From a virus, in IMG/VR virus record IMGVR_UViG_3300013102_000002, positions 96,001 to 160,000 of that record: a DNA stretch of 64,000 bases; one strand, written 5' to 3'. The position numbers and the translations under genes were made by a program. The notes beneath the pieces were generated by a model, which did not search any database, was not told the origin of the DNA, and worked only from the letters and a program-made list of their open reading frames with translations. This document shows positions 10,144 through 60,417 of this stretch, one piece after another (within the stretch, counting starts at the first letter, position 1; each line of letters starts with the position of its first letter).

Positions 10144-10198
10144 TTTAATAAATAAATATATAAAAAGTATTGACGCATTTAAATTGACGGAGTATATT
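10144..10198 (+). promoter_or_regulatory. Early promoter with TTTAATAAATAAATAT motif
   Basis: Motif at 10144; TTGACG-17-TATATT at 10170-10198. Confidence 0.7.
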
Positions 10199-13850: not shown

Positions 13851-13938
13851 TAATAAAAGACAGATTTCATGAGGATTTAATGTCTATATATGGTGTATTA
13901 TAAACAAATATACACCATATATAGATGAAATATTAATA
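13851..13938 (+). repeat. Left copy of 88-bp imperfect inverted repeat (partner 40941..41028); core palindrome plus tandem NrdR-box-like sites
   Basis: 60/88 gapless identity by hand to the reverse complement of 40941..41028. Confidence 0.8.
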
Positions 13939-14309
13939 TGATGGAGGATAATATGGATAAGCATACACATAACGTGAGTGTTAGTAATCACAATCACGGC
14001 TTTGATATTGGCGGAATTACTATCAGAGACACATCTAGTGCATTGGCGAGTATTTGGGACAGTGTTGCATATAAAACAACCAACAAAAAGGAGAATGAAA
14101 ATATGGAAACTTTGTATCAAGTAACTGTAGTAGCAAAAAATAAGGAAATTATCCTTGATAAAGAATCAGTTGTGGCGGTCGATCAAGAAAATGCTAAATT
14201 CATGGTGGGTCTTTATGGAATTTTGGCAGACAGAGAACTGACTCCAGCAGATGTAACGGTTATTGTAACGGCAATTGGTCAAGTTAAAATCGAAAAAGAA
14301 TCTAAGTAA
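13938..14309 (+). CDS. Hypothetical protein (possible internal start near 14103)
   Basis: 123-aa ORF; strong internal AGGAG. Confidence 0.5.
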   Translation: MMEDNMDKHTHNVSVSNHNHGFDIGGITIRDTSSALASIWDSVAYKTTNKKENENMETLYQVTVVAKNKEIILDKESVVAVDQENAKFMVGLYGILADRELTPADVTVIVTAIGQVKIEKESK

Positions 14310-14377
14310 TCATTACATAAGAATAAAAATACATAGCCTCACTGTAATGGTGGGGCTATATCTAAAACACGGAGGTT

Positions 14378-14923
14378 ATGATGCTGAACGCAATTATCGC
14401 CCTGATATTCTCATTTGCTCTGGCTCACTCAGGGATCAATGAACAAGCGGTCGGGGAAAACAAAGAAACTATGCCAATTGAAAAGAAAGTCGTCCAGACG
14501 GTTAAGGTTGAGAATGAAAAGAAAGTTGCAAAGGTTGAACCAAAAGAAATTTCAACAATTGCTGAAGAATACAAAGATTTTGAACAAGAATTAACGCCAG
14601 ATAGTACATGGGATACATATATTATTACTGCGTATGAGAATGGTGTAAGCTCTACAGGGAAGCGTCCAGGAGACAAGGGGTATTCGATTACTAGGTCAGG
14701 CAAAAAGACCGTGCAAGGCGTTACAGCGGCTGGAGATTTGAGTAAATTACCACTTGGAACAATAGTTTATATCGAATCAATTGGGTATCGCACAATACTT
14801 GATTCAGGGTCAAAAGTAAAAAATAAACATATTGATGTATTTATGGAGTCATATGATGATTGTATGGAGTTTGGGCGGCAGAAGCTTAAGGTCAAAATCA
14901 TTAAAATGGGAGAGTTGGATTAA
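14378..14923 (+). CDS. Secreted 3D-domain (lytic transglycosylase-like) protein, YorM-like
   Basis: Signal peptide; TAY, TRSG, A.D...PLGT.VYI, DSG, IDVF. Confidence 0.85.
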   Translation: MMLNAIIALIFSFALAHSGINEQAVGENKETMPIEKKVVQTVKVENEKKVAKVEPKEISTIAEEYKDFEQELTPDSTWDTYIITAYENGVSSTGKRPGDKGYSITRSGKKTVQGVTAAGDLSKLPLGTIVYIESIGYRTILDSGSKVKNKHIDVFMESYDDCMEFGRQKLKVKIIKMGELD

Positions 14924-15468
14924 TGAAGAATAAAGTTTTCGTACTCATGGCCTACAGCGGTGCGGGGAAGACGGAGATTGCTAAAGAGTTAGAAAAACAC
15001 GGTTACGATGTTTTGCAGTCGTATACAACGAGACAGCCGCGCTACAAAGGCGAATACGGGCACATGTTCTGTTCGGTAGAGGAATATGAACAGTTTGAGA
15101 AAAACGGTGAAGTTGCTGCGTATAGTTTGATTGAGGGGAATCATTATTTTAGCACAAAAGATCAGATTAAAAACAGTAAAAACAACCTCATTTATGTTTG
15201 CGATCCAGATGGAATCAAAGACCTTAAAGAAAAAGTTCCAGATGTTGAGTTTATCACAATCTACATCAAAGTAGATAAAAAAACTCGTTGGAGACGGATG
15301 GTAGAACGTGGAGATAGCACAGATAAAATTCTTAGTCGAGTTACAACTGATGGAATTAAGTTTGCAAAAAAACGCTTTGATTACCAAGTCATCAATTATG
15401 AATTTGATAAAGCAGTAAAGATAATCAAGAATATTATTGAGGTGGAAAACGAACAACCATTAAATTAA
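14923..15468 (+). CDS. gmk: Guanylate kinase-like nucleotide kinase
   Basis: AYSGAGKT P-loop, SYTTRQPR, DPDG. Confidence 0.88.
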   Translation: MKNKVFVLMAYSGAGKTEIAKELEKHGYDVLQSYTTRQPRYKGEYGHMFCSVEEYEQFEKNGEVAAYSLIEGNHYFSTKDQIKNSKNNLIYVCDPDGIKDLKEKVPDVEFITIYIKVDKKTRWRRMVERGDSTDKILSRVTTDGIKFAKKRFDYQVINYEFDKAVKIIKNIIEVENEQPLN

Positions 15469-17332
15469 AAAGGGAAGTGATGATATGTTTCCTGTTGATT
15501 TAGAAATTTTCAAGGACGTTCTTGATGCGGTTGTTAGTGGAGACTATACATATAGCGAGTTGTTGGAGTTAAGAGACAAGTTGAAAGACGTAGCGGACTA
15601 TGTAGAACGGTTGTTAGATGAAGAGTAAATGATGATAAAACTGTTAATTTATGAAGAAATTAAAGGAGGATAAAAATGGATAAATATGAAGTAGGATCAA
15701 AAGTGATGTTGCTTGAAAGTAGTTATGCAGAAAATTTGGGGATCACAGGAATGACCGGATACATTATTGATGAAGATAGTGATCATTATGATTATGCAGT
15801 AGAATATTCTCTTCCAAAACTGAATAGAAAAATGAAGGACTTTTTCAATCACAAAGAACTAACTTTAGTCACTGAGGATTAATAATGAACAAACCTAAGA
15901 AAAAATTGGTACTAGGGGAGAATAAAATGGAAACGAAACTTGGCGAATGGGCTGAAAGTATTAATGCCTTTTGGTGTGGTGGGAATGGTATGGAATGTGT
16001 TGCACGAAAAGGGGCTTTAGAGGTACTTGTTTATGACTGCGACCAGTATCCATGTCCACCGAATTACGTAGTTTTGTTGGGGATGGGGCGAAGAATTAGA
16101 ACGCTGGATGATTTCAACGAAGCATTAACCAGTGGAGTACGGATGAAAGCGACTTATGAAAAAGCTGGAACTGGAGCATTTGGAGATTAATTTCTTGATA
16201 AAAACCGCATTTTATTTGAATATTTAAGGAGATGGTAGAGTGGATATTTTTCAAACTATTCAGAAGAAAGTAAATAAAATTGCCAAAGAGACATATAAAT
16301 TGGATGAAGATCCGCCAGAATTCATCGTCAGTCTATTATATGAAAAGGCAGAAAACGGCGCAAAGGATATTGATCATAAAATTATCCTAACCATTAAACA
16401 TTGTGGATTTTCATTTAGCAAAGTGATTTTTCCTCAAACATCGCAAAGATACGGTTATGAATCTTTAGAAGAAGAAATGAAATATATGTATAACAAAACG
16501 ATGTAAGAGGTGAATCATGAGCATTGATAAAGATGGTTTTGGTAACGAAGTATGTTCTAAGTGTGGAGAAGAGATATATAACTCAGAGACATTGAGTAGG
16601 TGTTTGAGATGTGGGAAATCGACTCCCAGAGAAATGAGCGGTAAGGAATATTATAAGAATAAATATATGGATGGTGAAAATAATGAAAATTGAAGTGCCG
16701 CTATATAAGGAATCAGAAAAGTATATCAAAGAAACTTTTTCACGATACACCGAGAGTAGGGAGTTGCCATTTTCATTGACACTTGACAATTGCATTATCC
16801 ATATGTATCCGCACAGTGATACATACGATGATAATGGCGAATTGAATGGTTATGTTGATGCCTTGTTTTTTAGAGCACATATATACGATGTGAAAAATGG
16901 TGTAGTTTATAAATCTGAAATTCACGATGCAATTTTTACTGAAGCAAACTGTCAAATTAAATATTTTAAAGACATGAGTACAATGGTTCATTTTGAGAGA
17001 CCAATTAATATAATTATGGGCAGAGCAATTCACGTAATGAGTGTTTGATAATGGTTAATAAAATAAGGAATTGATTAGGAAAGGAGGGCTGCTTAATGGA
17101 ACTGAATGGAATATATGTAGTTTTATTTAAACATCCAGATGATAATACAAGTTCTTGTCATCATTACAGGTTTGAAGGCAGGTGTGAGAACTTTGTTACA
17201 ATAGGTACTTGTGCTTTTTCAAATGACAAAAAAGAAATGCTATTAGTTAACTATAGAGATATAGTTCAGATGAGATTAAAATAACGCCTTACCAAATGGA
17301 TCTTTTAAATAGAAAGGATGAAATAAATACAC

Positions 17333-17614
17333 ATGAGTGAAACTAAAGTAGTTAATAAATATCACAAATTACCATATGACATCTATTGCGGCAGAGGATC
17401 TAAATGGGGAAACCCATTTGTTATAGGCAAGGACGGAGATAGAGATGAAGTGTGTGATAAATACGAAGAGTGGTTTCCTAGTCAAGAACACTTGGTCAAA
17501 GACCTGCATGAGTTAAAAGGGAAAACTTTGTGCTGCTTCTGTAAGCCTAAGAGGTGTCATGTTGATTTTTTAGCAAAAAGGGCAGATGAAACTAGAAAGG
17601 AAAGTGCCAATTGA
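17333..17614 (+). CDS. DUF4326 family protein
   Basis: YDIYCGRGSKWGNPF...L.GK.L.C.C.P..CH. Confidence 0.85.
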   Translation: MSETKVVNKYHKLPYDIYCGRGSKWGNPFVIGKDGDRDEVCDKYEEWFPSQEHLVKDLHELKGKTLCCFCKPKRCHVDFLAKRADETRKESAN

Positions 17615-19042
17615 AAGAACTTATGGCTTACGTAAACATGATTAAAGATGTTCTGGATCGTGAATATGGGAAAGAAGTTATCTTCTATAGTGAAGGAGAG
17701 TGGTATTCAAGAGACCACTCTAGAAATATTACTGTTGAAGAACTAAGAGAATACCTGCTACAGCAAACATATAAAGGTGAGGATGCTTATTGAGTCTTAA
17801 TGAATTCATCATTTCACGGAGAAAGGGAGAGGTAACATGAACGAATTTGAAGAATTAAAAGAGTATGAAGAGGATTATTTAAAAAGTAATTGGTCTCGTA
17901 TGGACTTATTTTTAGCAGAAAAAATTAAAATGCAAAGTAGTGAGTTGGAGAACTTGAGGAAGTTTTATAGTTATTTTCGTGAATTGTATGGCGAAGGTCT
18001 GGAGGTAGCAAATTGGCACAAAAACGGAGATCTGGAACCATTTGATAACCTCTTTGATTCCGCCGAAGAGTGATAAAATAAAACTTTTATGAGGAGATGA
18101 GAAAAATATGAATATTAAACAAGTAGAAAAAATTAATGATTATTCAGCATGTACCGGAGACTTGCTTCTAACTAAAGATTCTAATGGGACAGAGCAATAT
18201 TTATTATTTTGCGAATCTGATGCAAGTATAGTCTTTGACGAAGAAAGATTCAGCAAATTTTATTTTGTAAATATTAAATCAGGGTATATGTTTGAACAAG
18301 AATTGCATAGCGACGATGAAATTAAAGTGGGAACTAAGATTAATGGGTGTGGAGCAATTATTAAGATCGTACCCAGTGATGATATCGAAGTGTTATTGCA
18401 CGAGTCTAAATATAATTAAATTTTGATTAATAGTTGAGAGGAGAAGGAGTTATTGAAATTAATCAACTATCTTTTAGAAACTGACAAAGAAATTGAAACA
18501 TATGAAATGGCTGCTAGTTTTCATGAGATGGAAGTTGAAGATTACATTAAAACTGGATATTGCCCTTCGGCATTTACTGTTTTTATAAATACAGTCTACA
18601 GTAAACCACTTGTTGCCGATAAAAAGCACAAAGATTCGTGTAAATATTCCAATCTAGAGGATCAAGATAAATGTAATGAATGTTGGAGCAGAAATATTCT
18701 TTTTGTTACTAAGTAAAAATTAGAAAACATACATATGAAAGTGGGAAATAATAATGGCAAACCTGTTACCAGAAGAAAAAGAAACAGTATGCACTACGGA
18801 TGAAGAGAGCAAGGTTTGGAAAATCTATTCCATGTCAAAACCGAAGATTACGAAAATGCTTAAAGCTGGGTTTGTTCCAGTAAAAGTTGACGAAGAGGGC
18901 GGTCACTTCTTTGAAGTAGAGGATAATCAAGTTTCATTCAGAGCAAAAAGTACACGAGTTGTGAGCCAAGAACAGAAAGATGCTGCTTCAGAACGGTTTA
19001 AACAAATGTGGAAAGATAAACTCAATCAAGAGGAGGTTTAAT

Positions 19043-19411
19043 ATGGACGCTGAAACTAAAGTAAGAACCGATTCTCAACGGTTAAAGATTCTCAATCTGC
19101 TACGGTCTGCCGGAACAAGCGGCGTAACTATTGTGGATTTAGCCAAGATTGCCAAACGCTATAACGCACGTATTCAAGAAATGTACGTTGAAGGGTATGA
19201 GATCAAGGTCGAAGATTTGGGTGGAGGTTTGACTAAATACACACTGGTAAAAGAGCCTGAAACAAAGAAAAGTAAACCAGAGAAGGCATTAAATGTTCTG
19301 ATTGAAGGTATTAAGAATAAATATAATGGTAATTTGAGTGTTGAACAATTGATTGAAGAGTTGAATAATAACAATTTTACAGTGAGACGGAATATCGGAA
19401 CGTTTTGCTAA
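19043..19411 (+). CDS. Winged-HTH domain protein
   Basis: SQRLKILNLLR...GVT..DL.....YNARIQEM...GYEI; start after GAGGAGG. Confidence 0.65.
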   Translation: MDAETKVRTDSQRLKILNLLRSAGTSGVTIVDLAKIAKRYNARIQEMYVEGYEIKVEDLGGGLTKYTLVKEPETKKSKPEKALNVLIEGIKNKYNGNLSVEQLIEELNNNNFTVRRNIGTFC

Positions 19412-21776
19412 AATAAAGGAGAGATTAGATGAAGAAAATAAAAGTTATCTGTAACAAATGCGGAAAATCAATCAAACGCTCTTATGATGAAGACTTTAAA
19501 ACAATCAATCTGGATTTTGGGTATGAGAGTAGTTTTGACGGAGAGACTTGGAGTTTCGATCTGTGCGATGATTGCTTAGAGGAGATGATTAAAACATTTA
19601 AATATCCTCCGTCTGGATTTAAAATTGATAATCATTTATTACTAGATGATGACATGCATCAGAGAGTGTTTGAAGACTGGAAGATAACTGGCGAATGGGA
19701 AGATTTAAAATATCATACATATGAACAGTTAGTAGATCTAAACGGTTATATGAGCGCAGGATACTTAAACACATATATCGAAAAGTATCACAAATTAATG
19801 CCCATGCTAGAAAATAATGATATTTAGTTTTGATCAAAGGAGAACTTATATGGGGAATGATCCAACCGTACTAGGAGCTGTCGATATAGTTAAGCTTGAA
19901 CTCGAAGAATTGGTTAGCAAGGGCGAAATAGCAAAAAGTTATTTAGATGAAGTTCTTTACGCTGAAAGAGATTACAAAAAAGGATTTAAAGACATTCCTG
20001 AAATGATCGAATTGATTAATGACATTGCTCTGTTTTGCAGGGGCACCAGAGAGGATGTTGATGATGATTTGTAATAATACACACTGTTTATGGAATGCTT
20101 ATGCAATGTGCTGTCACGAGAGCAAAGAAGGTTATGCAGCAGCAACACCTAATGAGTTGGATTGTTCATCATCACTACGTAAGGACTTTCAGGAGTCAAT
20201 GTATCAAATGATGGATGAAATTGATGAAATGATGATTAAGAGAAAGTTTATTGAGTTAGTTCAAATACATAAATTTGTAAGAGATCAAAGAAAAGTTGAT
20301 AAAGTCTAAATTTCGTGAAGAAAGGATGACTATTAATAATGAAATTTAAGCGCATCGCACAGACAGATATTGAAGCCACAACCGGAGACTTACTAATTAT
20401 TGAGTCAGAGGAAAGTGCTGAGTACTTTTTATTTTCTGAAAACAATAAACAGCCAGATGAAAAAGGCGTAGACGGAGTTGTTTTTACAGAGCTTAAGACT
20501 GGTATCTCATATGTAAAAATTATTCCAAGTTCATTGCCTATTAAAAAAGGAACACTTATTGATGATATTGGAATAATAAGAGAGGTTATTACTCAAGAAA
20601 AAATTGAAATATCGTTTTAAAACAAATTCACTAAGAATGGGAGATAGTTAATGTATAGCGAACCAGATTACTACGATTATGAACGTGAACCCTCAGAAAT
20701 TGAAAATGTGTTTTCAACTATGGTTGAAGCTGAAGTGACTAAGCGTACATCAAAGTATTTTGAAAAAATGAAACAGTTAGAAGACCAACACCTGACCGAT
20801 GTTAAAAAAGTGCTTGAAATCAAAAACGAGAGAGATGAGTTGAAAAAGACTCACAAACAAAGTGAATCATTCAGTGTATTTAAATCACAGATCAATGATA
20901 AAAATATTGAGAATGTAGTATCATTCTTGAATCTTAATGAAGTTAAAATTGATTTTAACGGAATGGATAGTGAGCGAATTCCATCATGGTTTAAATTGAT
21001 TGCAAAGTATTATCCAGATCGAGACAAAATCTTCTCATTATTGGATTTGTTTGAAATAAAATATCCTGATTGGGCAAAGTCATTTAAGATGCCGTTTGAT
21101 TATGGAGAGAAAGAACTGGATCTAATTTTCTTAAAACTTGGAAGGATGTATGTGTGTAATGGTTGCATATTTGATGGAAATATGGGGTTCTTCTATACTA
21201 ATTATTCTAGATATAAAGATATTAACATTTTATTTGATAAAGAATCTTCTGTTGGAATTCCGTGGAATCTATTCTTACAGAACAAACTTCTTACGACAGA
21301 AAAGTACTTTGATAAGATCATACAGGCATTTAAAGACAAAGAGAGACATTCTGTATATTTTTATAAGATTCAAGATTATCAAGAGTTGGTTCCAGAGCAA
21401 GCAGAAAGATTGTTTGATTTTCTACCGATGAATAATCTCTACGACATTCATAAAATGTTCATTGAGTTGAATACGGACATTATTAAAAAGAAACCAGAAT
21501 TAGCGAATACATATAAAGATAAGATGAGCGACAATCAGTACTCAAGTTTTTATTATTTGAACTTTCCTGTTGAAATGCAAAAAGACTTTATCAGAAATTA
21601 CAGGGGGATGGGGAGATATGAGTCTAAATTTGATCTTATAAAAAAGATGAACATCTCCAAGGAGGATAAACTAGTGTTTCTGCAAGAGATTAATGAACAA
21701 ATGTTAAGTAATAAATAAACTTCATAAATGATAGGTTTTATTATAACAAAAATACATATAAAAGGAGAAATAATTA

Positions 21777-22445
21777 ATGGAAGCATATGAATATCAAAAC
21801 GAAGTAAATGAACTAATTGAGGATCAAGACGAACTATCTTATATTATCCAGGATGAGACATGGAAGGTACTAGACCTAGCAACTGCTGTATGGGTAGATG
21901 AGAAAATCCATGAACGAGAAGTCAAGATTGCAGAAGTTGAAAAAGTTGCAGATGATAATATTACTGCACTGGAAGCGAAGATCGAGAAACTGAAGGCGTG
22001 GAAAGATGCTTCTACAAAGGTAGATAAGGATCGAATTACATTCTTCAAAGAACATCTACATATTTGGCATAGTAAATTGATTGATTGCGAAAAGCAAATA
22101 AATGAAGAGTTGATTGCTAAAGGTAAAAAAGAGAAGAAACTGAGCCTCACTGTCAAATTGCCGTATCGTAATTTGACTTGTCGTAATCAGAGTCCAGAAA
22201 TTATTATCAATGGCAAAGACACTTTGAACGCCAAAAAAGATGAAACGTTTGTTAAATACGTAAAAGAGAACAGTCCACAATACATTAAAACAACCGAAGA
22301 AGTTAAGTGGTCAGAATATAAAGACAGCCTCAATACAAGTGTGATCGATGGTGAGTTAATGTATGTAGATGAAAACGGCAGTCCAATTGAATTTATTAAA
22401 CTTCAACAACGTGGAGAAAAGTATGATTGGAAACTGACTGAATAA
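21777..22445 (+). CDS. gam: Mu Gam-like host-nuclease inhibitor
   Basis: WKVLDLATAVW..EKI, coiled coil, TVKLPY..L..R, YIKT.EEVKW. Confidence 0.75.
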   Translation: MEAYEYQNEVNELIEDQDELSYIIQDETWKVLDLATAVWVDEKIHEREVKIAEVEKVADDNITALEAKIEKLKAWKDASTKVDKDRITFFKEHLHIWHSKLIDCEKQINEELIAKGKKEKKLSLTVKLPYRNLTCRNQSPEIIINGKDTLNAKKDETFVKYVKENSPQYIKTTEEVKWSEYKDSLNTSVIDGELMYVDENGSPIEFIKLQQRGEKYDWKLTE

Positions 22446-22543
22446 TTTAATGAATAAAAATATGTACATAACAAAAACAACGTGGTATAATGACATTAGA
22501 TAAGTCGTTATACCACGTTTTATTGTGAGGAGGGAAAATACAT

Positions 22544-22774
22544 ATGCGTAAACTTGGCGAAGATTTTGAAAAGTTAATGGAGGAAGCCAAAGAGATACCT
22601 GGAGTTAAAGAACGGTCGGAGAAACCGTTTCGTAAAAGCCGCGAAGAGATCCTTGAACTGGCAGACAAGTGGGGAATTGAATACGAATTGAATTCTGATA
22701 ATCCTGGATTCTTTGTTGAAGATAAAGACGGTGTAGTAAGGAAAGTGAGTATTGAAGATATATTGTTTTTATAA
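22544..22774 (+). CDS. Hypothetical protein with own promoter
   Basis: GAGGAGGG RBS; upstream -10 TATAAT lies inside a 16-bp inverted repeat. Confidence 0.65.
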   Translation: MRKLGEDFEKLMEEAKEIPGVKERSEKPFRKSREEILELADKWGIEYELNSDNPGFFVEDKDGVVRKVSIEDILFL

Positions 22775-22804
22775 AAAAACCTTGAAAGGGAGGTGATATA
22801 ATAA

Positions 22805-23983
22805 ATGTATAAATCAATCTACATTCCAGTAAAAGCAAATAAAGCAGATATAGTTTATCTTTTTCAAACCAGAAGATTATCTGCCGAAGTATGGAATTTA
22901 TGTGTCCAACTTGACAAATCAAATAGAAAAGAAACTGGAAAGTCTCTTACAATGTCAGAAATTCAAAAGTTAACAAAGAAATGTGTGGGGCTACATGCCA
23001 AAGGTATACATCATGTATCTCACAAATACCTATTTGCAAGAGACGCAATGTTTCGGTCTAGGGAGTCAGGTGTGGAAAGAGTCAGATTACCATATAAAAA
23101 TAAGCGATATTTCAATACTGGCTGGGACTACCAAAGTATAAAAATTGACTATGACAAGGGAATCATTTTTCTTGCTCGACAAAGTAGTATTGTTGACGGA
23201 AAAGTAAAAAGAAACCCCCGTGTAAAATGTTATGCAAGAACTATTCCAAAAAATATTGTAGAGATTGAATTAACGCACAAGGGGAAGTTGATGCTTTGTA
23301 TTAAGTACAAAGAAGAAGATTATCTCGAAGTTAAACGTGAGAATGAGGCATCTATTGATCTTGGTGAAATTCACGCAATAACATCTATGTGCAACAATAA
23401 GAACGGAGTTATAATTACTGGTCGAAAAATCCGAGAAATAAAACATCTAAGAAATAATAATTTATCCGTACTGCGTTCCAAAAGAAGCAAATGCACAAAG
23501 GGTAGTAGGCAGTATAGAAAATACTCTAGGGCAATTGCAAAATTACAGGTAAAAACAGATACCAGAGTAAATGACTGTGTTCACAAAGTTTCTAAACAAT
23601 ATCTTGATTTTTGTCTAACAAACAATATAGGCAAGGTTTATTATGGAGATCTTGATTCTGCCACACGCTCCACGAAGCAGAATAATAAAGGGAATAATCA
23701 CGTTAGACAGAAATTGAGTCAATGGAATTACGGTGAACTAATGCGGCAAGTAGAAAATAAACTAACTCGTCACGGAATCAAACTAGAAAAGGTCAAAGAA
23801 TATTATACCTCACAGAAGTGTCCACAATGTAAAACTCTGAATAAAGTTCATAACCGCGAATACAAATGTTCATGCGGATACAAGCAACACAGAGACATTG
23901 TAGGAGCAATAAATATACTTAATGACAATGGTGGATACTCAATAGTGAGATATGAAACAAAATTGTATCTGCAAATTGCTTAG
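22805..23983 (+). CDS. tnpB: TnpB RNA-guided endonuclease (IS200/IS605/IS607 family), no TnpA nearby
   Basis: RuvC-I SIDLG, RuvC-II region YYGDL, EYYTSQKCPQC...CSCG Zn finger, RuvC-III HRDIVGAINI. Confidence 0.92.
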   Translation: MYKSIYIPVKANKADIVYLFQTRRLSAEVWNLCVQLDKSNRKETGKSLTMSEIQKLTKKCVGLHAKGIHHVSHKYLFARDAMFRSRESGVERVRLPYKNKRYFNTGWDYQSIKIDYDKGIIFLARQSSIVDGKVKRNPRVKCYARTIPKNIVEIELTHKGKLMLCIKYKEEDYLEVKRENEASIDLGEIHAITSMCNNKNGVIITGRKIREIKHLRNNNLSVLRSKRSKCTKGSRQYRKYSRAIAKLQVKTDTRVNDCVHKVSKQYLDFCLTNNIGKVYYGDLDSATRSTKQNNKGNNHVRQKLSQWNYGELMRQVENKLTRHGIKLEKVKEYYTSQKCPQCKTLNKVHNREYKCSCGYKQHRDIVGAINILNDNGGYSIVRYETKLYLQIA

Positions 23984-24086
23984 AGCATGAGCAGTAAATG
24001 TGGACGTAAGCCACCACTTGAACATGAGTGTAGCCTATGGATTACGCATAGGAAATTGATTCTAGTGTTTCACTAGATGAAACCTT
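23984..24086 (+). ncRNA. Candidate omegaRNA scaffold / element right end
   Basis: Non-coding region after tnpB with stems GTGG..CCAC, CCTATG..CATAGG and TCTAGTG-TTT-CACTAGA. Confidence 0.55.
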
Positions 24087-28006: not shown

Positions 28007-28156
28007 ATGAAATTCAATTGGTTGAAACAACAGATTATTGTTCCTATCCCACTGTTTTTGAATGAGAACGGGATAGATAAGACTTCAGAATTGGTGAGTG
28101 TAGAAATACAAGGAGATAAAGTAGTCATTACCTACAAAGACGGTGATAAGCAATGA
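28007..28156 (+). CDS. 49-aa paralogue of 564..716
   Basis: GAGAGG RBS; MKFNWLKQQIIVPIPLFLNENGIDKTSELVSVEIQGDKVVITYKDGDKQ. Confidence 0.75.
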   Translation: MKFNWLKQQIIVPIPLFLNENGIDKTSELVSVEIQGDKVVITYKDGDKQ

Positions 28157-29420: not shown

Positions 29421-29423
29421 CAT

Positions 29424-29630: not shown

Positions 29631-29740
29631 CATAATACATCTTTCCTCCAAACGATCAAATTAATTAACTACATACAATTCTACACAAGAAAAAAATAAA
29701 TGCAAATTCTAAGATTGGGAAATTGTAGGAGGAATAAATC

Positions 29741-30163: not shown

Positions 30164-30174
30164 AGATTTGAGAG

Positions 30175-30789: not shown

Positions 30790-30867
30790 AATTGGGCTTT
30801 CATCAGAAAATAAGTTGAGTAAAACAGAGCAATTAAGAGTATTTAAGAGATACTGGGAGGTTCTATT

Positions 30868-31290
30868 TTGAATAATTTAAGTCAGGCTATTTGCATAGCT
30901 ACAACAGCTCATACTGGTCAATTTGATAAAGGTGGTAATCCTTATATCCTTCATCCATTAAGAATTATGCTGAAAATGGATTCCAATGAAGAAAGAATAG
31001 TTGCCGTTCTTCATGATGTAATTGAAGATACTAATGTTTTAATTAGCGAATTAAGAAAAGTTTTCTTTGATGAAATTGCAAATGCCATTCTAGCACTAAC
31101 AAGAAATCATAATGAATCCTATATAGACTTTATTAGACGTTGTAAACAAAATGATTTGGCCCGTAAAGTTAAAATTGCTGATATTGAAGACAATATGGAT
31201 TTGAGTCGGATTGATAATCCAACAGAAGAGGATTATAAGCGAGTTAAAAAATACGAAAAGGCGTGGAGGGAATTGAATAAAAATGACTAA
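30868..31290 (+). CDS. Small HD-domain protein, (p)ppGpp-hydrolase / Mesh1-like
   Basis: AH.GQ.DKGG.PYILHP, AVLHDVIEDT, VKIAD..DN. Confidence 0.85.
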   Translation: MNNLSQAICIATTAHTGQFDKGGNPYILHPLRIMLKMDSNEERIVAVLHDVIEDTNVLISELRKVFFDEIANAILALTRNHNESYIDFIRRCKQNDLARKVKIADIEDNMDLSRIDNPTEEDYKRVKKYEKAWRELNKND

Positions 31291-31576
31291 CAGACTATTG
31301 GCAATCGGATTTATTGTGGTTAGTGCACTAACATTAAGTGGATGCAAAAACGATGTTAAAACTGTTTATAATCAAACATACATAGAAACGGTTAGTACGC
31401 AAAAAGGTGATGTCATGATCTTCAAAAACGAAGAAGGGTTTAAATACGGTTATATATTAGATCCGAGTGATTCTTTTAAGGTTTCAAAAAATAAAGTATA
31501 TGATTTACAGGTGTCAGTTGAAACGTTGTTTACTTCATATGGAGGATTCATAAAAGGCGTTGATGAAAATAAATAA
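31283..31576 (+). CDS. Lipoprotein
   Basis: Signal peptide with LSGC lipobox. Confidence 0.7.
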   Translation: MTNRLLAIGFIVVSALTLSGCKNDVKTVYNQTYIETVSTQKGDVMIFKNEEGFKYGYILDPSDSFKVSKNKVYDLQVSVETLFTSYGGFIKGVDENK

Positions 31577-32526
31577 TGATAAAAATCAAAATATTAAAAG
31601 GAGTAAAAATAATGAAAAAGATAAGTAAATTAAAGAAACAATCTCAGAACAATGTATATAACTTTCCACCCAAAACAGATTTAGAATTTCGTATACATAT
31701 GAAGACTAATTCCCAAGGCAATAAAATAATCATCTGCTTTGAGTTACCTAATGGAGAGCAGCATATTAGAAATTATGGCGATATTCCTTCACATAATTTA
31801 TTAATTCCATTCGAATCACAATTATTTGAGCTTTATCTTGATGAAGGATATCAAGGAAAATACAAATTGCTCACGGCAACTCGTGACGCATTTACGTATG
31901 ATAAGGTAGAATAGACATATAAACATCATGATCAACTTAGGCCGTCTAATTATAGGCGGTCATTTTGAGTAAATAAATTTAAAGTGCTTGCTTTTAATGA
32001 ATAAATATATTAAAATAATAAGTGTAAAGAAGATGTGATTAGTGATAAGCAGCAGGAAAATACATATGATTTGTGGAATATTATAATGGTGGAGGAGATT
32101 TAATTTATGAAAACAACACGAAGAAAAGCAAGAGATTTTAAAATTGGCGAAGAAGTAATTCATCGTAGTCATGGTAAGGGAACTGTGTTCTCGTATGATC
32201 GGGTTTACGAAGATGATATCTATATTGATTTTGATGTGCAACCTGTTGGATGGGATAAAATTCTGTGTGTGACAGCGAATTTATTAAAAAAAGTCGGTGA
32301 ATAAGGGTTGCTAAAATCAAAAAAATATCCCAGTTTTGATGAAGCCATTCAGAATTTAGAGAAGTCAGGTGAATTAAAATTCTTTGGTCGTGAAGGTGTA
32401 ATGGCAGATGGGTATGTGTATCAGTATTGGAGTAATGGGATAATGCAAGTGATTGTGGTTTATACAAATGGAAAACTGGTAGTTGTAGGAGAGTAATTAA
32501 GTGAAACAAAATTAAAAAAAGGAGAT

Positions 32527-33099
32527 TTGATTGGGATTAACAATAGAAAATTTAACGATTATACCGTTGATGGAGATGTGACATATATTCATGTGCTAAA
32601 TAGAAAGAAAGAAAAGTTTGATATACTGATCGATACTGAAGATTTGCAGAAACTGATTGATCTCGATTGTTACTGGCATGTTGCTTTCAATCCAAAAATA
32701 AAAGGATATTATGCACAAGCTTCGGTATATATGGGTATAGTCAACAAGAAGCCAAAATATAAAACGATGTATCTACATAGAGTAATTCTTGACGCGAGTG
32801 AAAATGATGGAAAGTATGTGCACCATAAAAATCATACAAAGACTCTGGATAATAGAAAGGAAAATCTGGCAGCAACAAATAACGAAAATAATTCTAAAGA
32901 CAGAAAAGGTAAAAATGAGAATAACAAATCTGGATACAGAAATGTTTGTTGGTTGAAAAACGAAAAGAAATGGGTTGTACAATTGCAAATTAAAGGCGTT
33001 AATACTCGACTTTCATTTTTCGATGATGTTCATGAAGCAGGAAGATATGCCGAAGAGATGAGGAAGAAATATTACGGAGAGTTTGCTGGGAAAAATTAG
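32527..33099 (+). CDS. HNH endonuclease with AP2 domain
   Basis: LHRVI...VHHKNH..TLDNRKENL; NKSGYRNV.W...KW. Confidence 0.88.
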   Translation: MIGINNRKFNDYTVDGDVTYIHVLNRKKEKFDILIDTEDLQKLIDLDCYWHVAFNPKIKGYYAQASVYMGIVNKKPKYKTMYLHRVILDASENDGKYVHHKNHTKTLDNRKENLAATNNENNSKDRKGKNENNKSGYRNVCWLKNEKKWVVQLQIKGVNTRLSFFDDVHEAGRYAEEMRKKYYGEFAGKN

Positions 33100-33315
33100 T
33101 TGGAATTCATGGGAGGAGGTATAGAAATTGGCCGGAAAATCGATCTACTTCACGGATAAAGAGTTGAAAATGATTAGAGATGCTTTTGATCAATATAACT
33201 ACTCTTTTGAGGGTGATGATCTCACCGATGAAGAGACTGAAGAAAAATATTCTTTGGCAGAAAGTATTCGAAACAAAGTAAAACGATGACCTATTAAAAA
33301 CATTCTTTCATAAAG

Positions 33316-33993
33316 ATGGGGGTGCGAAATTATATGGCAACACATTTCGGAGTAAAGGTACTCAATAGAGAGGGAGAGTTAAAGCTAACCGCTGATAATT
33401 ATGTGAGAAAAATTGATAAAGATAATGTCGTTTCGTCAGATGAAGTAAAACTTAAGTTAGAAAAAGTCATGACTCGATTCAATCTTAATATGAACGACTT
33501 CAAGTCGTTGTCCAGGAAAAAATTTAATGAAGAACTAGATAAGTTCATCAACAAAAATAAATTTTATGAGATCAAAGACCTCAATTCTGTAGCTGGTATT
33601 TATGGACACTATGTAATGGTCTTAGACGAGTATTGTCAAGTTTATATAGGAACTGCTAGTCGTAACGAGGGCATAAAAGCAAGGATACCTCAACATTGGA
33701 GAGAGAAATTATCCTTAGTTCAACTTGACAGGGGCGAATATGGTTCTCTACATATAGATAGTTTTAGAGCTATGGATACCACCAGGATTTTTGTGTGGCG
33801 CGATGATGAATGTACTTTTTTCGAGGATTACACGTTTAACGAGCTTTGCGAAGGTAAATTAGTTGCCCAATTTCCTATAGATTATTGCTTGAATTCAGTC
33901 ATGAATAATATACCAAAAGAGTTTTTCCATAAGAGAATGAGAGATCGGGATTTAAGGGATTTAAGGGTATATGGCAAGAATCATAAAGCGTAG
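33316..33993 (+). CDS. GIY-YIG nuclease-family protein
   Basis: GIY...VMVLDEY.QVYIG...I..RI.QHW. Confidence 0.7.
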   Translation: MGVRNYMATHFGVKVLNREGELKLTADNYVRKIDKDNVVSSDEVKLKLEKVMTRFNLNMNDFKSLSRKKFNEELDKFINKNKFYEIKDLNSVAGIYGHYVMVLDEYCQVYIGTASRNEGIKARIPQHWREKLSLVQLDRGEYGSLHIDSFRAMDTTRIFVWRDDECTFFEDYTFNELCEGKLVAQFPIDYCLNSVMNNIPKEFFHKRMRDRDLRDLRVYGKNHKA

Positions 33994-34463
33994 TCATTAG
34001 CTAGATATGATCAAGGAACCATGAGGTTATGAAATGTGAATTTTACGGGGAGTGATATATGTGGGTTTAAGACCGAAAGAAGATCAGAGAATTAAGTTTT
34101 GTCAATTTGGTACAGCAGAAATTCGCATTGGCACAGTAAAGCGTATTCTAAGACCGGAGTTTTATCGTCACTTAAAGAGAGTGCAGTATCTTGTTGAATG
34201 TGACGGTGAACAACTACATATAGAACCACATGAAATGATTGAGTATGTATCCAAATGAAATATGACTTTCACGAAGAAATGGAAGGAGAAATATAATGAT
34301 TGAAATTACAAAGGAAGAATACGACATTATTAAAAGAATTCTAATTGATGGAACAGGTGATGCTATAGTGAATATAACCGATGGATCAAGAAGAGCTGTA
34401 ATTATTATGGAAGATGCTTTTGAAGAAAATTAAACTTAACTAGAGAGGAGAGGAAGATACACA

Positions 34464-34742
34464 ATGCCAAATAAGAAACTAAGAATCGCACACTTTCCAC
34501 AAATCGGAGCAAAAGCATTCGAAGTAGAAGTGAGCAATCTACAAGAGGCCAGATTGCTCTATAACACGCTTGCAGATTATGACTTGTTCCAATACCATAA
34601 TCAAATCAAACCTGACTATGCCAATGCTACAGTCGTTCAGGAGTGGCTTGAGGAAGAGGGTGAATGGATTAGTTGGTCAGATGATAAAACAGGGATTGAT
34701 GATATTAATGAGTATTTTGAATATTTAGAAGAGGTGAAATGA
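34464..34742 (+). CDS. P22 gp17-like (superinfection-exclusion related) protein
   Basis: LRI.H.PQI....F.VEV.....LADYDLFQY...IKPDY.N. Confidence 0.65.
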   Translation: MPNKKLRIAHFPQIGAKAFEVEVSNLQEARLLYNTLADYDLFQYHNQIKPDYANATVVQEWLEEEGEWISWSDDKTGIDDINEYFEYLEEVK

Positions 34743-37576
34743 AAATGGCTGATAGATATTATTCGACATTGATTATGCATTATGTACCAGATGAAGTATT
34801 GGAAAAGTATGGTGTGAAAAGAACACATAAGCAATTTCGTATCGTATGTAAGGCAAAATCAAGAGCCGCCGCCGAGAGATATGTCAAAGAAGTATTGGAC
34901 ATTAATGGTGGAAAAGTTTTTGATCCTAACTATACTTCTGAAACAGGTAACAAAGAAGCGATTGACGCTGCCGACAAATTCACAGGAGCAATATCACTAG
35001 GTAATATGGGATCGGTTTATCATGACATGAAAGAAATACACAGAGAGATCGAAGAATTCAGAAACATGAAGAATTGACAACTAGAAAACCCGCATAGAAT
35101 AAGGGTTTTTTGATACATAAATCATGATAAAAGTGGCATTTCATGAGAAGGGGAGAAATGAGCGTATGACAACAATTTATGTCGTTACATATTGTGCTCC
35201 TTGGGCAGAGTATAATACCCAAAGGTCAAATACGAAGGCGTTTTATGATAAAGAAGAAGCTCAAGAATATATTAACCAAGAACTAAATAAAAAACATGAA
35301 AGTGGTCATGATGAATATTTTAAAGGTATGAATGGTGATTATGAAATTGATGAAATTGAACTGATTTAATTGATTTAGATAATATTGGAAAGAAGGGATA
35401 TTAATGAGCGTAATTACTACATACGATGAAAAAAGAGACAGACTCAGAGACGAACTTACGGATTGTCTAAAATTGGCTAAAGAGTTACTCGATGAGGACA
35501 TTTGGGGATACGATGAGATGAAAGATGATTATGCTATGAATGTTTATACGGCAGTAAAAAAGGCTAGAGATGCTGTGTAAAACACCGAATACATAAATGG
35601 GGTGATAAAATGAATGAGGTAGAACTAACAGAATTTATAAAGAATAACCTTTCAATTGAGATTGAAGAGGACTACATATCCTATAGCGGGTCTGGCATCA
35701 GAGTGAATTTGGTCTTGAATGGTGAAAGGATTTCCACAGACTATATTGTTACCAACCAAGATTAGAATAATTACAAATATTTGATAAAGAAGAGGAGAGA
35801 TGTTTATGTTTATGATGTTTATCTATGTTAATGGTACAGCACATAATAGTATGGGTATTCGCGGAGAATTGGATGAATTATACTTAATTGCAGAACAAGA
35901 AACAAAAAAGTTGTTTAAGACTAATCCACATGCCGAGATTTCAACAAAGATTACAAAATATATTTAAGATAAATCATACATTTCAACATGAAAAAGGAGA
36001 TTGATAAAAATGGATATCAAAAACACTTTTAAGGTTGCTCAAGAAATTGCCGCACTCTCTACTAAATACGAGAATGAAGACATCGGCGATAATGAACAAG
36101 CAGAGATTCTTAACAAGAAATTTATTGATGAACTAGATATGTTGCACAGCAAACTCTTACAATTAAGTATGTACGCCACAGATAAACTACTTAATAAAAC
36201 AGCAGTCAACACTAAAACTTATGAGCAACTGTCTTCATATTCTAACTTGAGTGTTTATTACATCTATGAAAACGAAGGACTTGCTCTTGTTGAAGATACA
36301 GGGATGGGTTTACATCTTGTTCCGTTGGACATTCTAAGGTTCGAAGATTAATATCTTGATTAAATTTTCTTTTGATTAAGAAAAGAAGAAAGGAGGATTC
36401 GTATGAAATATCTGTTAATCGAAAATTTAATGGGTGGATGCGCCTGGATTCTGAAGGAGTACCTAGATGAATTAGAGCTTCATGAAGTTTACAAGTTTAT
36501 GAATTCGGGAACATTTTCATCTGGAGATATTCAAAAATATATCGTTACTGAAGAAGATTTTAATAGGGAAATTGAGTCTGGAACGTTGCAGTATTTGTGA
36601 GTTGCTTATAAAATCTTTCTTTCAACAGGAATATTTTACCGCAAGCTACTTTGTGATAAATAAAGTATTATGGTGGGGTAAAATAATCCAATTTGAACGG
36701 AGAGATTTATTATGGATGATAAGACAGCAAAGATTCAACTGACTACATATAACCAATTTGGGGAATTTAGTTTTTATGTTGATCGTAAACAGATCCAGGA
36801 TTATTTAGACAGTAAGCTATCTAAAATAGAAGTCGATCAGTTTCTTGATATGTGTACGCTTAAGGATACTAGAATGCTATTTGATTGGATTAAAGAGAGT
36901 TCAGTAAAGAAAGTAGAATAGTTAAAATTGAAATTAAAAAGGATGAGATAATAATGACAGATAGAGTAAAGGGTTTATATGTGGTTCTGGATAATGATTA
37001 TAGAGATGATGATGTTCAAGAAATTATCAATGCAATTAAAATGATTAAAGGAGTTCAAGATGTTACAAATAGTATTGTTGATGGAGACGACTGGATGAAT
37101 CGTTCGAGAATTGGTTTTGAATTTCAAAGTAAAATACTTGATGTGCTGAAAGATTTGAAATAACTTAAAGAAAACTTGATTTGATTAAAAAATAAAGGAG
37201 ATGACTAATTTGATTTCAAAGGAAACATTAGATGAATTATCTGAATTCGAAAAATTTAATGAGTGTTATTATCGACCACTTACTTATAATGGCTATGCTA
37301 CTCTGGCTTGTATGCAATGGTTCGATGAATACGATTGTGATGAAAAACGATTCTTCAGAGATGAAAATGATGACAAATATCGCTTTTCAAACAAGGAAGA
37401 GGGGATTGAGTGGCTGTTTAACAATATCAAAGCTGATAAAATAGATCCTGAATATCAAGAATACAATCATGATCATTTTTACAAATAATGAAGAAACCAA
37501 AAACCCTTATAAACACTGGACTTTTTAATCACTAAAAGCGCATGAAAGCCCGATTTTATCAAGAGAGGAGAATATA

Positions 37577-38434
37577 ATGGATACGGAATACTTGGATAAA
37601 TTAAGCCAAATTATTATAAACGAAGGCTTACGTGACACCTGGAAGACCCAAGAAAGACTGAAGGCATTAAATAAAATACACCCATCTGATACTGTTATTT
37701 ATCACTCGGAAAACATCAGAGGTAAGTGTATTGTGTATTATGGAAGTATTTCCGACCTAGGAAGCATAGGCACATATGAATTTAAGTTGGGGAAGATTAA
37801 GAAAGAAGAAACAATTAGTGGCGTTCTGAAATTGAAGGCGTGGGAAAATCAATTCAATAAAACAATACATAAACAGAAGCCGAATCTAGCAATGATTAAG
37901 GAAGATATTTTGAACTGGACTAAAAAAAGCAAGAACGAAAAACACAAAAAACAATTTCTCAACACTCTAAGTGTTCATTATAAATACACTGGACAAATTA
38001 TTGTTTTCTATAAAGAATTTAATGGAGAAGCAAAAAAAATAAAACCTATCTACAAAATGTTTGAAGACGTTAGCGTAGAAGAGCTATATACATACGCAAA
38101 AACAAAGAGTAAAGAATTTTGGAATCGTGAATTTACTGGCACGATCAAATATGTTAAGACCTTTTGGAACAATCAATTAGGAGTGTACTTCCCGGAATTT
38201 GAAACAATCAGATTTAGCGAATACATGAATGGCACACAATCAAAAGAAAAGATATTCGATACATTAATTCACGAACTTGTTCATTGGCATTTGCACACTT
38301 CCGGGAGTAAATATGCCGATGAAGATTTTGAATTCATCGAAGAATGTTTGCGTGTCGGCTGTGGTTTATCAAATGCTGCTGGAGCGCAAAGAGCTTATAG
38401 AGAGTATTTAAATAGTAAAAATAAGGTTGTGTGA
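37577..38434 (+). CDS. SprT-like zinc metalloprotease domain protein
   Basis: DTLIHELVHW (HEXXH) in C-terminal domain. Confidence 0.75.
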   Translation: MDTEYLDKLSQIIINEGLRDTWKTQERLKALNKIHPSDTVIYHSENIRGKCIVYYGSISDLGSIGTYEFKLGKIKKEETISGVLKLKAWENQFNKTIHKQKPNLAMIKEDILNWTKKSKNEKHKKQFLNTLSVHYKYTGQIIVFYKEFNGEAKKIKPIYKMFEDVSVEELYTYAKTKSKEFWNREFTGTIKYVKTFWNNQLGVYFPEFETIRFSEYMNGTQSKEKIFDTLIHELVHWHLHTSGSKYADEDFEFIEECLRVGCGLSNAAGAQRAYREYLNSKNKVV

Positions 38435-38778
38435 GTAATGGGTGTCTGGGGAGAAATGTTATACCAAGTTAGTACAAAAACGTTAAAGATAAGAGCGCTT
38501 GAACTCAGAGATGAGATTGAAATTAAACCGAAGCGAAAATTGAAGAAAGAGTTAAAGGAAATTCTTGATGAAATTGAATATCAAGAAGGCAGACTGCAAT
38601 ATGCCAATAGGCCATATAGTTTTCCAACTGCAAAATTACCCATTCCTGGAACGGAGCTAATTGAACATGACTTGGATTGTGATTGTGGATGTTGGCTGAA
38701 GATATTTAATAAATAAATATATGTACAATAATAATATAATGTGTTATGATGAACTTGTGAGACAATACATATGAGGAG

Positions 38779-39603
38779 ATGGATATATTAATGATTAAAA
38801 TTGAAGGCAAGAAGCATGAAGAGTTTATTCAAGAATTATGCGATACATATGGTAAGCTTAAGTTTGATCCAGATAATAGCGGACTAAAAAATGATTACGA
38901 AGGTCTTAAGAAGATTATCTTGGAACGGATGAATTCTTATTCTATTGTAGATAGTGTGGAACTTTCTGAACTACTCACTCTAGAAGATATTATTGTTAAT
39001 GGAGATCAGATTGATCAAGTGTTCAATAAACTTAATGAATATTTAGATGAGCACGTTCATTCACCAAAGAATTTGTGCAGCAAGGATAATGCTGTTTTTA
39101 TTCTGATGATGGATAATTCTGGATCTATGGGTTCGTATGAAAGGTATATGGCAAAAGCAATGGTTACTTGGAGCAGACTCTTACTTGGAGACAGATATAA
39201 TAAAGTCAAAATGGAGTATATTGTTCATAATACAAAAGCCGAAAGCGTAAGCGAGGATGCATTTCTAAATAGTACAGAATCTGGAGGAACGATTGCATCA
39301 TCTACTTATGTACGCTGCCTAGAAATAATCAATTCGACTGATTATAAGAATAAAGATATTTATGTTATGCATATATCTGATGGGGATAATCTTACTTCAG
39401 ATAATTCGAGAACTGAGAATTATCTATATGACATTTTAAATAAAGTAAATCAAGTTCATTATGTAGAAACAAATCAATATAATAGAAGCAGTACTTTAAT
39501 GCAAGTCTTTAAGAAGGTTAATAACAATAAGTTTATTAAGTCAACAATTAAAGATAAGAGCGATGTTCTCAAGGCAATTCTTGATGCATATGTAATCGCT
39601 TAG
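38779..39603 (+). CDS. YhbH/DUF444-like vWA domain protein
   Basis: MMDNSGSM MIDAS, ESGGT..SS, H.SDGDNL.SDN. Confidence 0.85.
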   Translation: MDILMIKIEGKKHEEFIQELCDTYGKLKFDPDNSGLKNDYEGLKKIILERMNSYSIVDSVELSELLTLEDIIVNGDQIDQVFNKLNEYLDEHVHSPKNLCSKDNAVFILMMDNSGSMGSYERYMAKAMVTWSRLLLGDRYNKVKMEYIVHNTKAESVSEDAFLNSTESGGTIASSTYVRCLEIINSTDYKNKDIYVMHISDGDNLTSDNSRTENYLYDILNKVNQVHYVETNQYNRSSTLMQVFKKVNNNKFIKSTIKDKSDVLKAILDAYVIA

Positions 39604-39889
39604 TAGATTACATGAAAGTTCTGTTTTATCAAGAAAAAAGGGAGTGGGTATTTGTGGAACATCATGATTGTGAGAGCAATATTTATTATGCTGGGACACC
39701 TGTAAATAAGTGGTTTCTTTTGGTCGAGGGCAGCTCGTGGGATACATATACTGACGGATTTGAAGTAATTAATGTTGAAATCAGTTATTGCCCTCACTGT
39801 GGAGCAAAATTGGAAACGATTAGTGAAGCTGTATAATGAAATCTCAGTTTTATAAGGAATAAAAATAATTATAATAAGGAGAATTAAAA

Positions 39890-40636
39890 ATGACAATTGA
39901 AAAAAGTATTCAGGATGTAATTCAATCTAAACTAGAAGAGGGCTTAGTTGAGAAGTTGGTGGCTGAACAACTTGAAAAAGGTATTACAAAAGCTCTCGAA
40001 AGTTTATTTGGATCATATGGTGATGTTACAAAGATTCTGGAAAAGCAAATTAAATCGGTTATGGTTCCATTTCTTGAAGCTTATGATTATTCAGAATACA
40101 TAGTGAAATTAGATGATGTGCTGGTTGAGGTTCTAAAAAATACAACAATGGAAAATAAATCAATCCTTAATAATTTTAAAGAATTAATGACTATTGATGA
40201 AAAAGTAAAGGAAATTAAACTAACTGATCTATTTACTAAGTGGACAGAATATGTGGCTAAAAATGTTGATACAAGTGATTTGGAAGTTTGCTACGATGAC
40301 GGTGTAAGTTATGAAAATGTCGATGTTCGTTTTAATGTTGATTATAACGAAGATAACAGTTGGAGTAGTTTTGAATACGCCGTGCTAACATTTGAATGTG
40401 AACAAGATGAGGAAATGAATTTTGCAATTAGATTGCATCGATGGAAGAACGGAAGAGATAAGAGTTGGGACATCGACTACGACAAAGTTAACGATTTGAA
40501 GTCACTAAAACATGTCAACCATTTTGAAATACTTTTGATGAAGCTTAAACAGAGTTTTACAAAATTAATAATTGATGAAGATTGTGATTCTGACGAGGTT
40601 CAACCAGAGGCCGAACCAGAGGCATCATTCAGTTAA
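39890..40636 (+). CDS. Conserved acidic phage protein
   Basis: 248-aa ORF, AAGGAG RBS, flanked on both sides by exact palindromes (39836, 40643). Confidence 0.7.
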   Translation: MTIEKSIQDVIQSKLEEGLVEKLVAEQLEKGITKALESLFGSYGDVTKILEKQIKSVMVPFLEAYDYSEYIVKLDDVLVEVLKNTTMENKSILNNFKELMTIDEKVKEIKLTDLFTKWTEYVAKNVDTSDLEVCYDDGVSYENVDVRFNVDYNEDNSWSSFEYAVLTFECEQDEEMNFAIRLHRWKNGRDKSWDIDYDKVNDLKSLKHVNHFEILLMKLKQSFTKLIIDEDCDSDEVQPEAEPEASFS

Positions 40637-40940
40637 GGATTCATGAAACCCTCATTTCATAAGGAATTTAAAAGTAAAAATACATAATTAGTCAAAGGGG
40701 ATAGATATGTTTAACAACAAGCCTAGCTGCTATGAAACAAAAGTTTTTGTTAAAAAGGGTGATTTGTTAATTGCTAATACTTCTGAATTTGATTTAACAG
40801 AAGGACGAATATATATGGTAATCAAAAATCAGGGCGAAGGTACATTTGGGGATTGTTTTTATATTGTTAACGACAAAGAAAATACACAAGATTATTCTGG
40901 AGAATATTTTTGCCATTATGAGGGTGAATTAGTCACATTC

Positions 40941-41028
40941 GACTAACATTTTGTCTATATATAGTATTTATACTTGAGAATATATCTATATATAGACATG
41001 AAAACCACATGAAAGAGGTATTTTATTA
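40941..41028 (-). repeat. Right copy of 88-bp imperfect inverted repeat (partner 13851..13938)
   Basis: Tandem CTATATATAG boxes 31 bp apart, 10-nt linker, then core palindrome 41009-41026. Confidence 0.8.
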
Positions 41029-42346: not shown

Positions 42347-42372
42347 AGGAAGGTGATATTATTTCTGAGGAA

Positions 42373-43893: not shown

Positions 43894-43911
43894 TCCAAGA
43901 GGTGATATAAA

Positions 43912-60406: not shown

Positions 60407-60417
60407 GACACTAGGAG

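Follow-up and report, generated by a model that had tools for sequence, protein, structure and literature searches.

What do two similar sequences of 88 bp, placed in opposite orientation around some 27 kb of small genes in the replication region of an SPbeta-like phage, represent, and do they mark the two ends of a single inserted unit? The pair lies in a stretch of 64,000 nucleotides (hereafter the window; G000:C1:96001-160000) taken from the IMG/VR virus record IMGVR_UViG_3300013102_000002, which totals 174,510 bp and has direct terminal repeats. An initial annotation of the window had taken the copies for the left and right ends of a large unit or hotspot, inserted between the neighbours yorG and yorH and grown through a palindrome-based recombination system. 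Our comparison of sequences with those of related phages favours a different answer: each copy is likely a composite regulatory junction, made of an intercistronic palindrome and an operator for NrdR and placed under predicted NrdR control, and the block is likely a hypervariable region reshuffled at such palindromes.

Two motifs in opposite order

The similarity is real. Without gaps, 13851-13938 matches the reverse complement of 40941-41028 at 60/88 positions, far above the maximum of 43 seen when 200,000 inverted 88-mer pairs were drawn at random from the window (mean 23.6, standard deviation 4.2), and a repeat search of the window returned the first 41 nt as an inverted pair (I2, 83% complementary). 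The anatomy first described is also correct, with core arms TAATAAAA-N6-TTTCATG facing outward, a short linker, an AT-rich hairpin (TGTCTATATAT...ATATATAGA) and spacers that differ between the copies; read in one sense, the palindrome centres are GACAGA on the left and TACCTC on the right (GAGGTA on the other strand), identical at 2/6 positions. The left copy begins 4 nt past the stop of the YorG/Sak4-like gene (12659-13846) and the right one ends 719 nt short of the YorH-position gene (start 41747), close to the placement first proposed. In SPbeta yorG and yorH are indeed neighbours, separated by a 42-bp gap that holds an annotated stem-loop.

Two features go beyond that description: the core arms belong to a motif of which the genome has 30 exact copies, and the AT-rich hairpin corresponds perfectly to a tandem pair of NrdR boxes. 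Each copy consists of a 22-bp quasi-palindrome and a tandem NrdR-type operator, with a gap of exactly 8 nt between them:

13851-13872, unstranded: left junction palindrome, TAATAAAA-GACAGA-TTTCATGA, one of the 30 exact copies
13881-13896 and 13912-13927, unstranded: boxes 1 and 2 of the left NrdR-type operator, 15-bp linker, 12/12 key positions, 16-bp stem
40952-40967 and 40983-40998, unstranded: the two boxes of the right NrdR-type operator, 15-bp linker, 12/12 key positions
41007-41028, unstranded: right junction palindrome, ACATGAAA-GAGGTA-TTTTATTA, separated from the operator by 8 nt

On the left the order runs from stop codon to palindrome, 8 nt, operator and ribosome-binding site, and on the right from stop codon to operator, 8 nt, palindrome and ribosome-binding site. 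The pair reads as an inverted repeat because both elements are near-palindromic and the composites stand in opposite order. Most of the identity between left and right falls on the arms of the palindrome (15/16) and on the key positions of the NrdR boxes (12/12), and the gap agrees at 6/8; the linkers (5/15) and the centres (2/6) are unrelated. The initial annotation had named independent NrdR sites as the finding that would speak against it, and this is what the similarity resolves into, namely two NrdR operators plus a generic junction palindrome.

NrdR sites comprise two 16-bp boxes with highly conserved C4, A6, A8, T9, T11 and G13, separated by a non-conserved linker of 15-16 bp, and have at least 63% A+T between C4 and G13 (PMC13584703). 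This last interval is A or T at 7/8 positions in each left box and 8/8 in each right box, and both linkers are 15 bp long, with sequences unrelated between copies and between orthologues. The two operators are the only strict NrdR pairs in the 174.5-kb genome (0.05 expected), and another 554 kb from other loci yielded none. When run as a control on 31 Bacillota genomes, this pattern matched 0-3 times per genome in 30 of them, against 0-1 for the reversed pattern; of the ten Bacillota matches inspected, nine immediately precede ribonucleotide reductase genes (class I/II or class III) and the tenth precedes gyrB. The remaining Bacillota genome (G032) contains 42 copies of a repeat of ~41 bp (CAACATTTTGTATATATGCAAAATTGGCTGCCCATATGTAG) satisfying the strict pattern, which we read as a dispersed element that mimics or carries NrdR operators.

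The palindrome belongs to a much larger family, with the 22-bp consensus TYATRAAA-N6-TTTYATRA and a 6-bp centre particular to each copy. The 30 exact copies of ATRAAA-N6-TTTYAT in the 174.5-kb genome compare with 0.6 expected, and about 74 are found when one arm mismatch is allowed. Almost all follow a stop codon and precede the ribosome-binding site of the next gene; they lie on the coding strand in both gene blocks, and some 20 fall inside the accessory block. The R/Y positions of the arms do not covary (G-with-T or A-with-C in 18/27 copies), therefore a hairpin is not the selected feature and an RNA-hairpin reading of the 22-bp palindrome is unlikely. Matches to ATAAAA-N6-TTTTAT in the distant phages G001 and G002 mostly have a ribosome-binding site in the centre or overlap a start codon, and were not counted as the same element.

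The block between yorG and yorH and its relatives

Gene order and content of G000, as we call the phage, are SPbeta-like. YopQ-like and YopR/MrpR-like proteins are encoded at window 5152-7468, the replication region contains two YorF-like proteins and the YorG/Sak4-like ATPase, and further on come the YorH-position protein, helicase, primase, a RecJ-like YorK and a large polymerase. By YorG, the nearest named phages are the Enterococcus phages EF1, EF5, H1 and VRE9, at 51% amino-acid identity. The features around and within the block, among them its open reading frames (ORFs), are:

12659-13846, plus: YorG/Sak4-like ATPase, the last conserved gene before the block (phrog_124, Sak4-like, E 6.5e-51; 33% identity to SPbeta YorG, 51% to the Enterococcus phage homologues)
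13938-41734, plus: accessory block, 27.8 kb, about 70 small co-oriented ORFs (ORF and palindrome lists)
within 13938-15468, plus: ORF of 123 aa after the left operator, likely start 13954
14378-14923, plus: 3D-domain protein (Pfam 3D, E 2.9e-10)
14923-15468, plus: guanylate-kinase-like protein (Pfam Guanylate_kin, E 9.5e-14)
22805-23983, plus: TnpB/IS605 OrfB-type gene, 392 aa, a separate small element in the block (Pfam Cas12f1-like_TNB, E 7e-21; OrfB_IS605, E 2.8e-10)
40707-40946, plus: ORF of 79 aa, in the cassette that ends with the right operator (ORF list)
41053-41734, plus: three small ORFs of 53, 58 and 103 aa, which separate the right composite from the YorH-position gene (ORF calling)
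41747-44949, plus: resumed replication module with YorH-position protein, helicase and primase (phrog_6344, phrog_19, phrog_47)
42373-43893, plus: DnaB-like helicase of this module
44002-44949, plus: primase-like YorJ of this module

The first genes after the left operator (13938-15468) also include a match to phrog_1815, and the three small ORFs at 41053-41734 gave no family matches. The YorH-position protein has weak N-terminal similarity to SPbeta YorH (33% over 64 aa). In SPbeta and an Enterococcus phage the gap between yorG and yorH measures about 42-65 bp, and the helicase lies within about 0.7 kb of YorG in both and in dozens of metagenomic relatives. Neither SPbeta nor the Enterococcus phages have the block, and about 70 metagenomic relatives lack it too. 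In the clade of G000 the interval reaches 27.9 kb (G000), 22 kb (G006) and 28.8 kb (G010). Searches of viral, genome and metagenome contigs with YorG returned relatives no more than 56% identical, and the close relatives surfaced only with the helicase as query (helicase identity 81-90% in L095-L102 and L106, and 57-63% in L103-L105 and L107). Neither a megablast with both junctions against the phage collection nor a pattern derived from the composite and run on viral contigs gave any match.

Compared with G006 and G010, the block is a collinear mosaic, in the same orientation, with only a minority of genes shared. Palindromes with the centres GACAGA, GGCACG, TGCGTG, TGAACA and TATGAC follow in the same order in the three phages, and the 60 nt on either side of them are unrelated:

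window 13859, 24093, 26160, 27287 and 34261: same-centre palindromes of G000
G010r 5639, 20744, 22510, 23919 and 29490: same-centre palindromes of G010
G006r 3742, 14759, 16528 and 20056: same-centre palindromes of G006

Patches of homology with L100 have an edge exactly at a palindrome (36604, 37560, 39836 and 41009). The G+C content and skew of the block match those of its flanks, with neither a compositional break nor an origin-like GC-skew inflection at its borders. A block that is collinear, broken at palindromes and compositionally uniform is therefore best seen as an old, clade-wide region reshuffled cassette by cassette, and not as one insertion bounded by the 88-bp pair. The hotspot part of the original idea stands, in that a large block does interrupt the otherwise conserved order yorF-yorG-yorH-yorI-yorJ and, with homology breaking at palindromes, behaves like a recombination hotspot; its description as one unit does not.

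Other irregularities were seen in the same region. Small ORFs also interrupt the replication module elsewhere, over about 6.5 kb from yorJ to yorK (44949-51448) and over about 7.6 kb from yorK to yorL (52842-60418); these yor genes are contiguous in SPbeta. A 149-nt direct repeat (568-716 and 28008-28156, 76% identity) covers two paralogous ORFs of ~50 aa, and a TnpB-type copy 32% identical to that of the block follows the RecJ-like gene in L103/L105. The YorG/Sak4-like gene of several distant relatives (L023, L024, L025, L036, L037, L038, L040, L041 and L043) is matched in 2-3 pieces, ~0.25-1.2 kb apart, which suggests possible introns, inteins or homing-endonuclease insertions.

The left composite is kept in G010 (12/12 key positions) and in G006 (11/12, with a 16-bp linker), with the same GACAGA centre and the same 8-nt gap, and in both it precedes homologous 3D-domain and guanylate-kinase genes. 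G009 has the same GACAGA palindrome with a degenerate composite, and G007, G008 and G042 keep that palindrome at the orthologous junction, with the operator and the first ORF missing. Upstream of the junction, G000 has the YorG-like gene, G006 a version 32% identical to that one, and G010 an unrelated ORF of 390 aa (L108 8382-9554); such an ORF, with no PHROG match and ending just before the GACAGA palindrome, holds the YorG/Sak4 position in all of G007-G010. Between the left boxes of G000 and G010, 12/20 non-key positions have changed as against 0/12 key positions (Fisher's exact test, P about 6e-4, calculated by hand), and the variation of the linker between these two phages is as expected for NrdR sites.

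At the right junction no NrdR pair was found in 12 relatives. One of them, L100, has the GAGGTA palindrome at the orthologous position, with different arms (TTATAAAA...TTTTATCA) and no operator, and its nucleotide homology with G000 begins exactly at this palindrome. The 79-aa ORF just upstream (40707-40946) has no homologue in the relatives, nor is there nucleotide homology with L100 here. Operators do occur at other places: L103/L105 have an independent composite (operator, 8 nt, palindrome) after yorJ, L103 has a further 12/12 pair 118 nt upstream of its YorH-position gene, and another G006 site (L109) shows the classical layout, with a TTTACA-17-TATACT promoter overlapping box 1. Within the clade, different junctions of the replication region have therefore acquired or lost NrdR operators. 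At least three independent composites keep the spacing fixed at 8 bp, which suggests either that the two elements are functionally coupled or that the composites share an ancestor. A different arrangement exists in G010, where three NrdR-like boxes stand in tandem (G010r 8736-8814, contig about 65.2 kb; 11/12 per adjacent pair), some 3 kb further downstream than the first operator and with no junction palindrome nearby.

Competing explanations

Several observations weigh against taking both sites as NrdR operators. The genes downstream (3D-domain and guanylate-kinase-like on the left; YorH, helicase and primase on the right) are not ribonucleotide reductases, and neither operator belongs to the promoter of a ribonucleotide reductase operon. 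In bacteria, NrdR boxes are as a rule part of a promoter, and a convincing sigma-A promoter overlapping either operator was sought and not found; repression would then need a roadblock or an unrecognised promoter. No nrdR gene was found in the phage genome. The 16-bp stem formed by boxes 1 and 2 of the left operator is held by five compensatory double changes between G000 and G010, which points to a further constraint acting on an RNA or DNA hairpin. Finally, the left and right copies of G000 are alike at 21/24 positions of arms and gap, against 16-18/24 for the orthologous left copies, a closeness that may reflect common descent of, or gene conversion between, the two G000 copies.

This last point opens the first alternative, in which the right composite arose within the genome from the left one, by copying or by conversion, and came to lie inverted at the GAGGTA junction through palindrome recombination; the two would then be homologous without being the ends of a unit. 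The arms and gap that the G000 copies share (15/16 and 6/8) exceed those of the orthologues in G010 (13/16 and 5/8) and G006 (12/16 and 4/8), the 8-nt spacing is identical in both composites, and L100 keeps the GAGGTA palindrome with other arms and no operator. However, these differences amount to a few bases, arms and boxes are constrained by their consensus, the linker and centre are unrelated, and the independent composite of L103 has the same spacing, so that the spacing may be a functional requirement and not an inherited feature. We consider such a copy unlikely, if still worth keeping in view.

The coupling at 8 bp, in either order and in at least three independent places, admits a second proposal, to which we give a rather small chance: bound NrdR might gate what takes place at the palindrome, be it cassette exchange or the work of a phage-specific transcription or processing factor, according to deoxynucleoside triphosphate (dNTP) status, or else the operators, multiplied on replicating phage DNA, might draw NrdR away from the ribonucleotide reductase genes of the host and thereby relieve their repression.

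A third alternative takes the AT-rich hairpins mainly as nucleic-acid structures (an RNA stem-loop for processing, stability or pausing, or a DNA cruciform), the match to NrdR being secondary. The 16-bp left stem is stable in three orthologues (fold z-scores of -4.1 in G000, -4.8 and -3.7), its pairing is preserved by the compensatory changes just mentioned and by one G-U pair in G006, and SPbeta has its stem-loop at the same junction. Against this, all key NrdR positions are invariant while paired non-key positions change, and three sites have a loop of exactly 15-16 nt, the length of the NrdR linker. The right copy folds marginally (z -1.8) and the L103 composite forms no stem (z -0.3), both having 12/12 box positions. 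There is no terminator-like site at either copy, the stems being AT-rich with no T-run or U-tract as an intrinsic terminator would have, and no Rfam family matched either. We regard a mainly structural role as improbable.

The reading from which the locus was first approached, a mobile or invertible unit of 27 kb with these copies as its terminal inverted repeats or recombination ends, accounts for the inverted similarity, the outward cores, the left copy adjoining the yorG stop and the absence of the block from other phages, yet it is hardly tenable, given that the left composite persists in G006, G010 and G009 with no right partner and no sampled relative has the right operator, that the block extends 719 nt beyond the right copy, which is not outermost, that the identity is just 60/88 and gathered in consensus positions of two known motif types, that the centres differ where partner sites of a tyrosine recombinase would share an identical overlap, that the outer flanks (...AAGTAAGACC on the left, AAACATGAAA... 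on the right) show no direct repeat as target-site duplication, that the only transposase-like gene is the internal TnpB, not associated with either end, and that the block, instead of being present or absent as a unit, is collinear, co-oriented and mosaic across relatives at 22-29 kb in G006/G010, with no compositional break.

Predicted control and its parallels

If the composites are regulatory junctions, host NrdR would bind both boxes as a dATP/ATP tetramer and repress at both operators, blocking RNA polymerase that starts at, or reads through, the junctions. The simplest reading would be a roadblock inside long operons, because there is no good sigma-A promoter or terminator at either site. 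NrdR would in this way make the operon that opens the block (3D-domain and guanylate-kinase genes) answer to the deoxynucleotide status of the host, and likewise the YorH-helicase-primase replication genes. The phage has its own ribonucleotide reductase cluster (G000 159.8-163.2 kb, window 63800 onward), with an activase-like ORF and matches to ATP-cone, small- and large-subunit families; no NrdR box pair was found upstream of these ribonucleotide reductase genes (G000 160.6-163.2 kb).

The operators resemble the tandem NrdR boxes of bacteria in their two partially palindromic 16-bp boxes with the same six key positions, the 15-16 bp non-conserved linker and the AT-rich interior (PMC13584703; PMC12051234). 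They differ in standing, in a phage genome, upstream of a 3D-domain/guanylate-kinase operon and of replication genes with no clear overlapping promoter, in being joined, always at 8 bp, to a palindrome particular to the phage, and in the covarying 16-bp stem of boxes 1 and 2. Another parallel is SPBRE, the operator of the SPbeta master repressor MrpR/YopR (PMC10516654), which we read upstream of yonT, yonX, aimR, yopM, yopV and yorE of SPbeta as AAATACAAAwAATATGTATAwA. Both SPBRE and the junction palindrome are short intergenic elements repeated in an SPbeta-type phage that encodes YopQ-like and YopR-like proteins, but TYATRAAA-N6-TTTYATRA is unrelated to SPBRE in sequence. The palindrome as an SPBRE/MrpR operator was dropped, since SPBRE as extracted from SPbeta differs from both parts of the 88-mer. 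A second dispersed family of the window, TTTAATRAATAAATATAT(G/A)TACA, often overlaps promoters of the TTGACA/TATAAT type and resembles the core of SPBRE (ATATGTA); it may be the operator of the YopR/MrpR-like protein encoded at 6473-7468. Its members lie at:

10136-10171
22446-22474
31993-32021
38697-38732
46555-46616
52830-52865
59147-59186

Recombinase core sites with a variable centre of 6-8 bp are known from dif/pdif modules and heterospecific lox/FRT sites, and in T4-type phages promoter stem-loops mediate the shuffling of modules. Like all of these, the junction palindromes have short inverted arms and a 6-bp centre, occur in many copies at cassette boundaries and coincide with mosaic breakpoints. 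Unlike dif/pdif and lox/FRT sites, they have neither a tied recombinase nor an observed recombination product, and the two sites of the pair have different centres, hence they would not be partners under a centre-matching rule.

A general caution is that two near-palindromic regulatory motifs set in opposite order can mimic terminal inverted repeats. The junction palindromes are conserved and ordered breakpoints of a 22-29 kb mosaic, and offer a concrete locus for the swapping of small accessory genes in large phages. Our literature search found no description of such a use of the NrdR regulon. If NrdR does bind these sites, a temperate SPbeta-type phage would have wired its replication and nucleotide-kinase operons to the dATP/ATP sensor of its host, and its own ribonucleotide reductase genes would stand outside this control.

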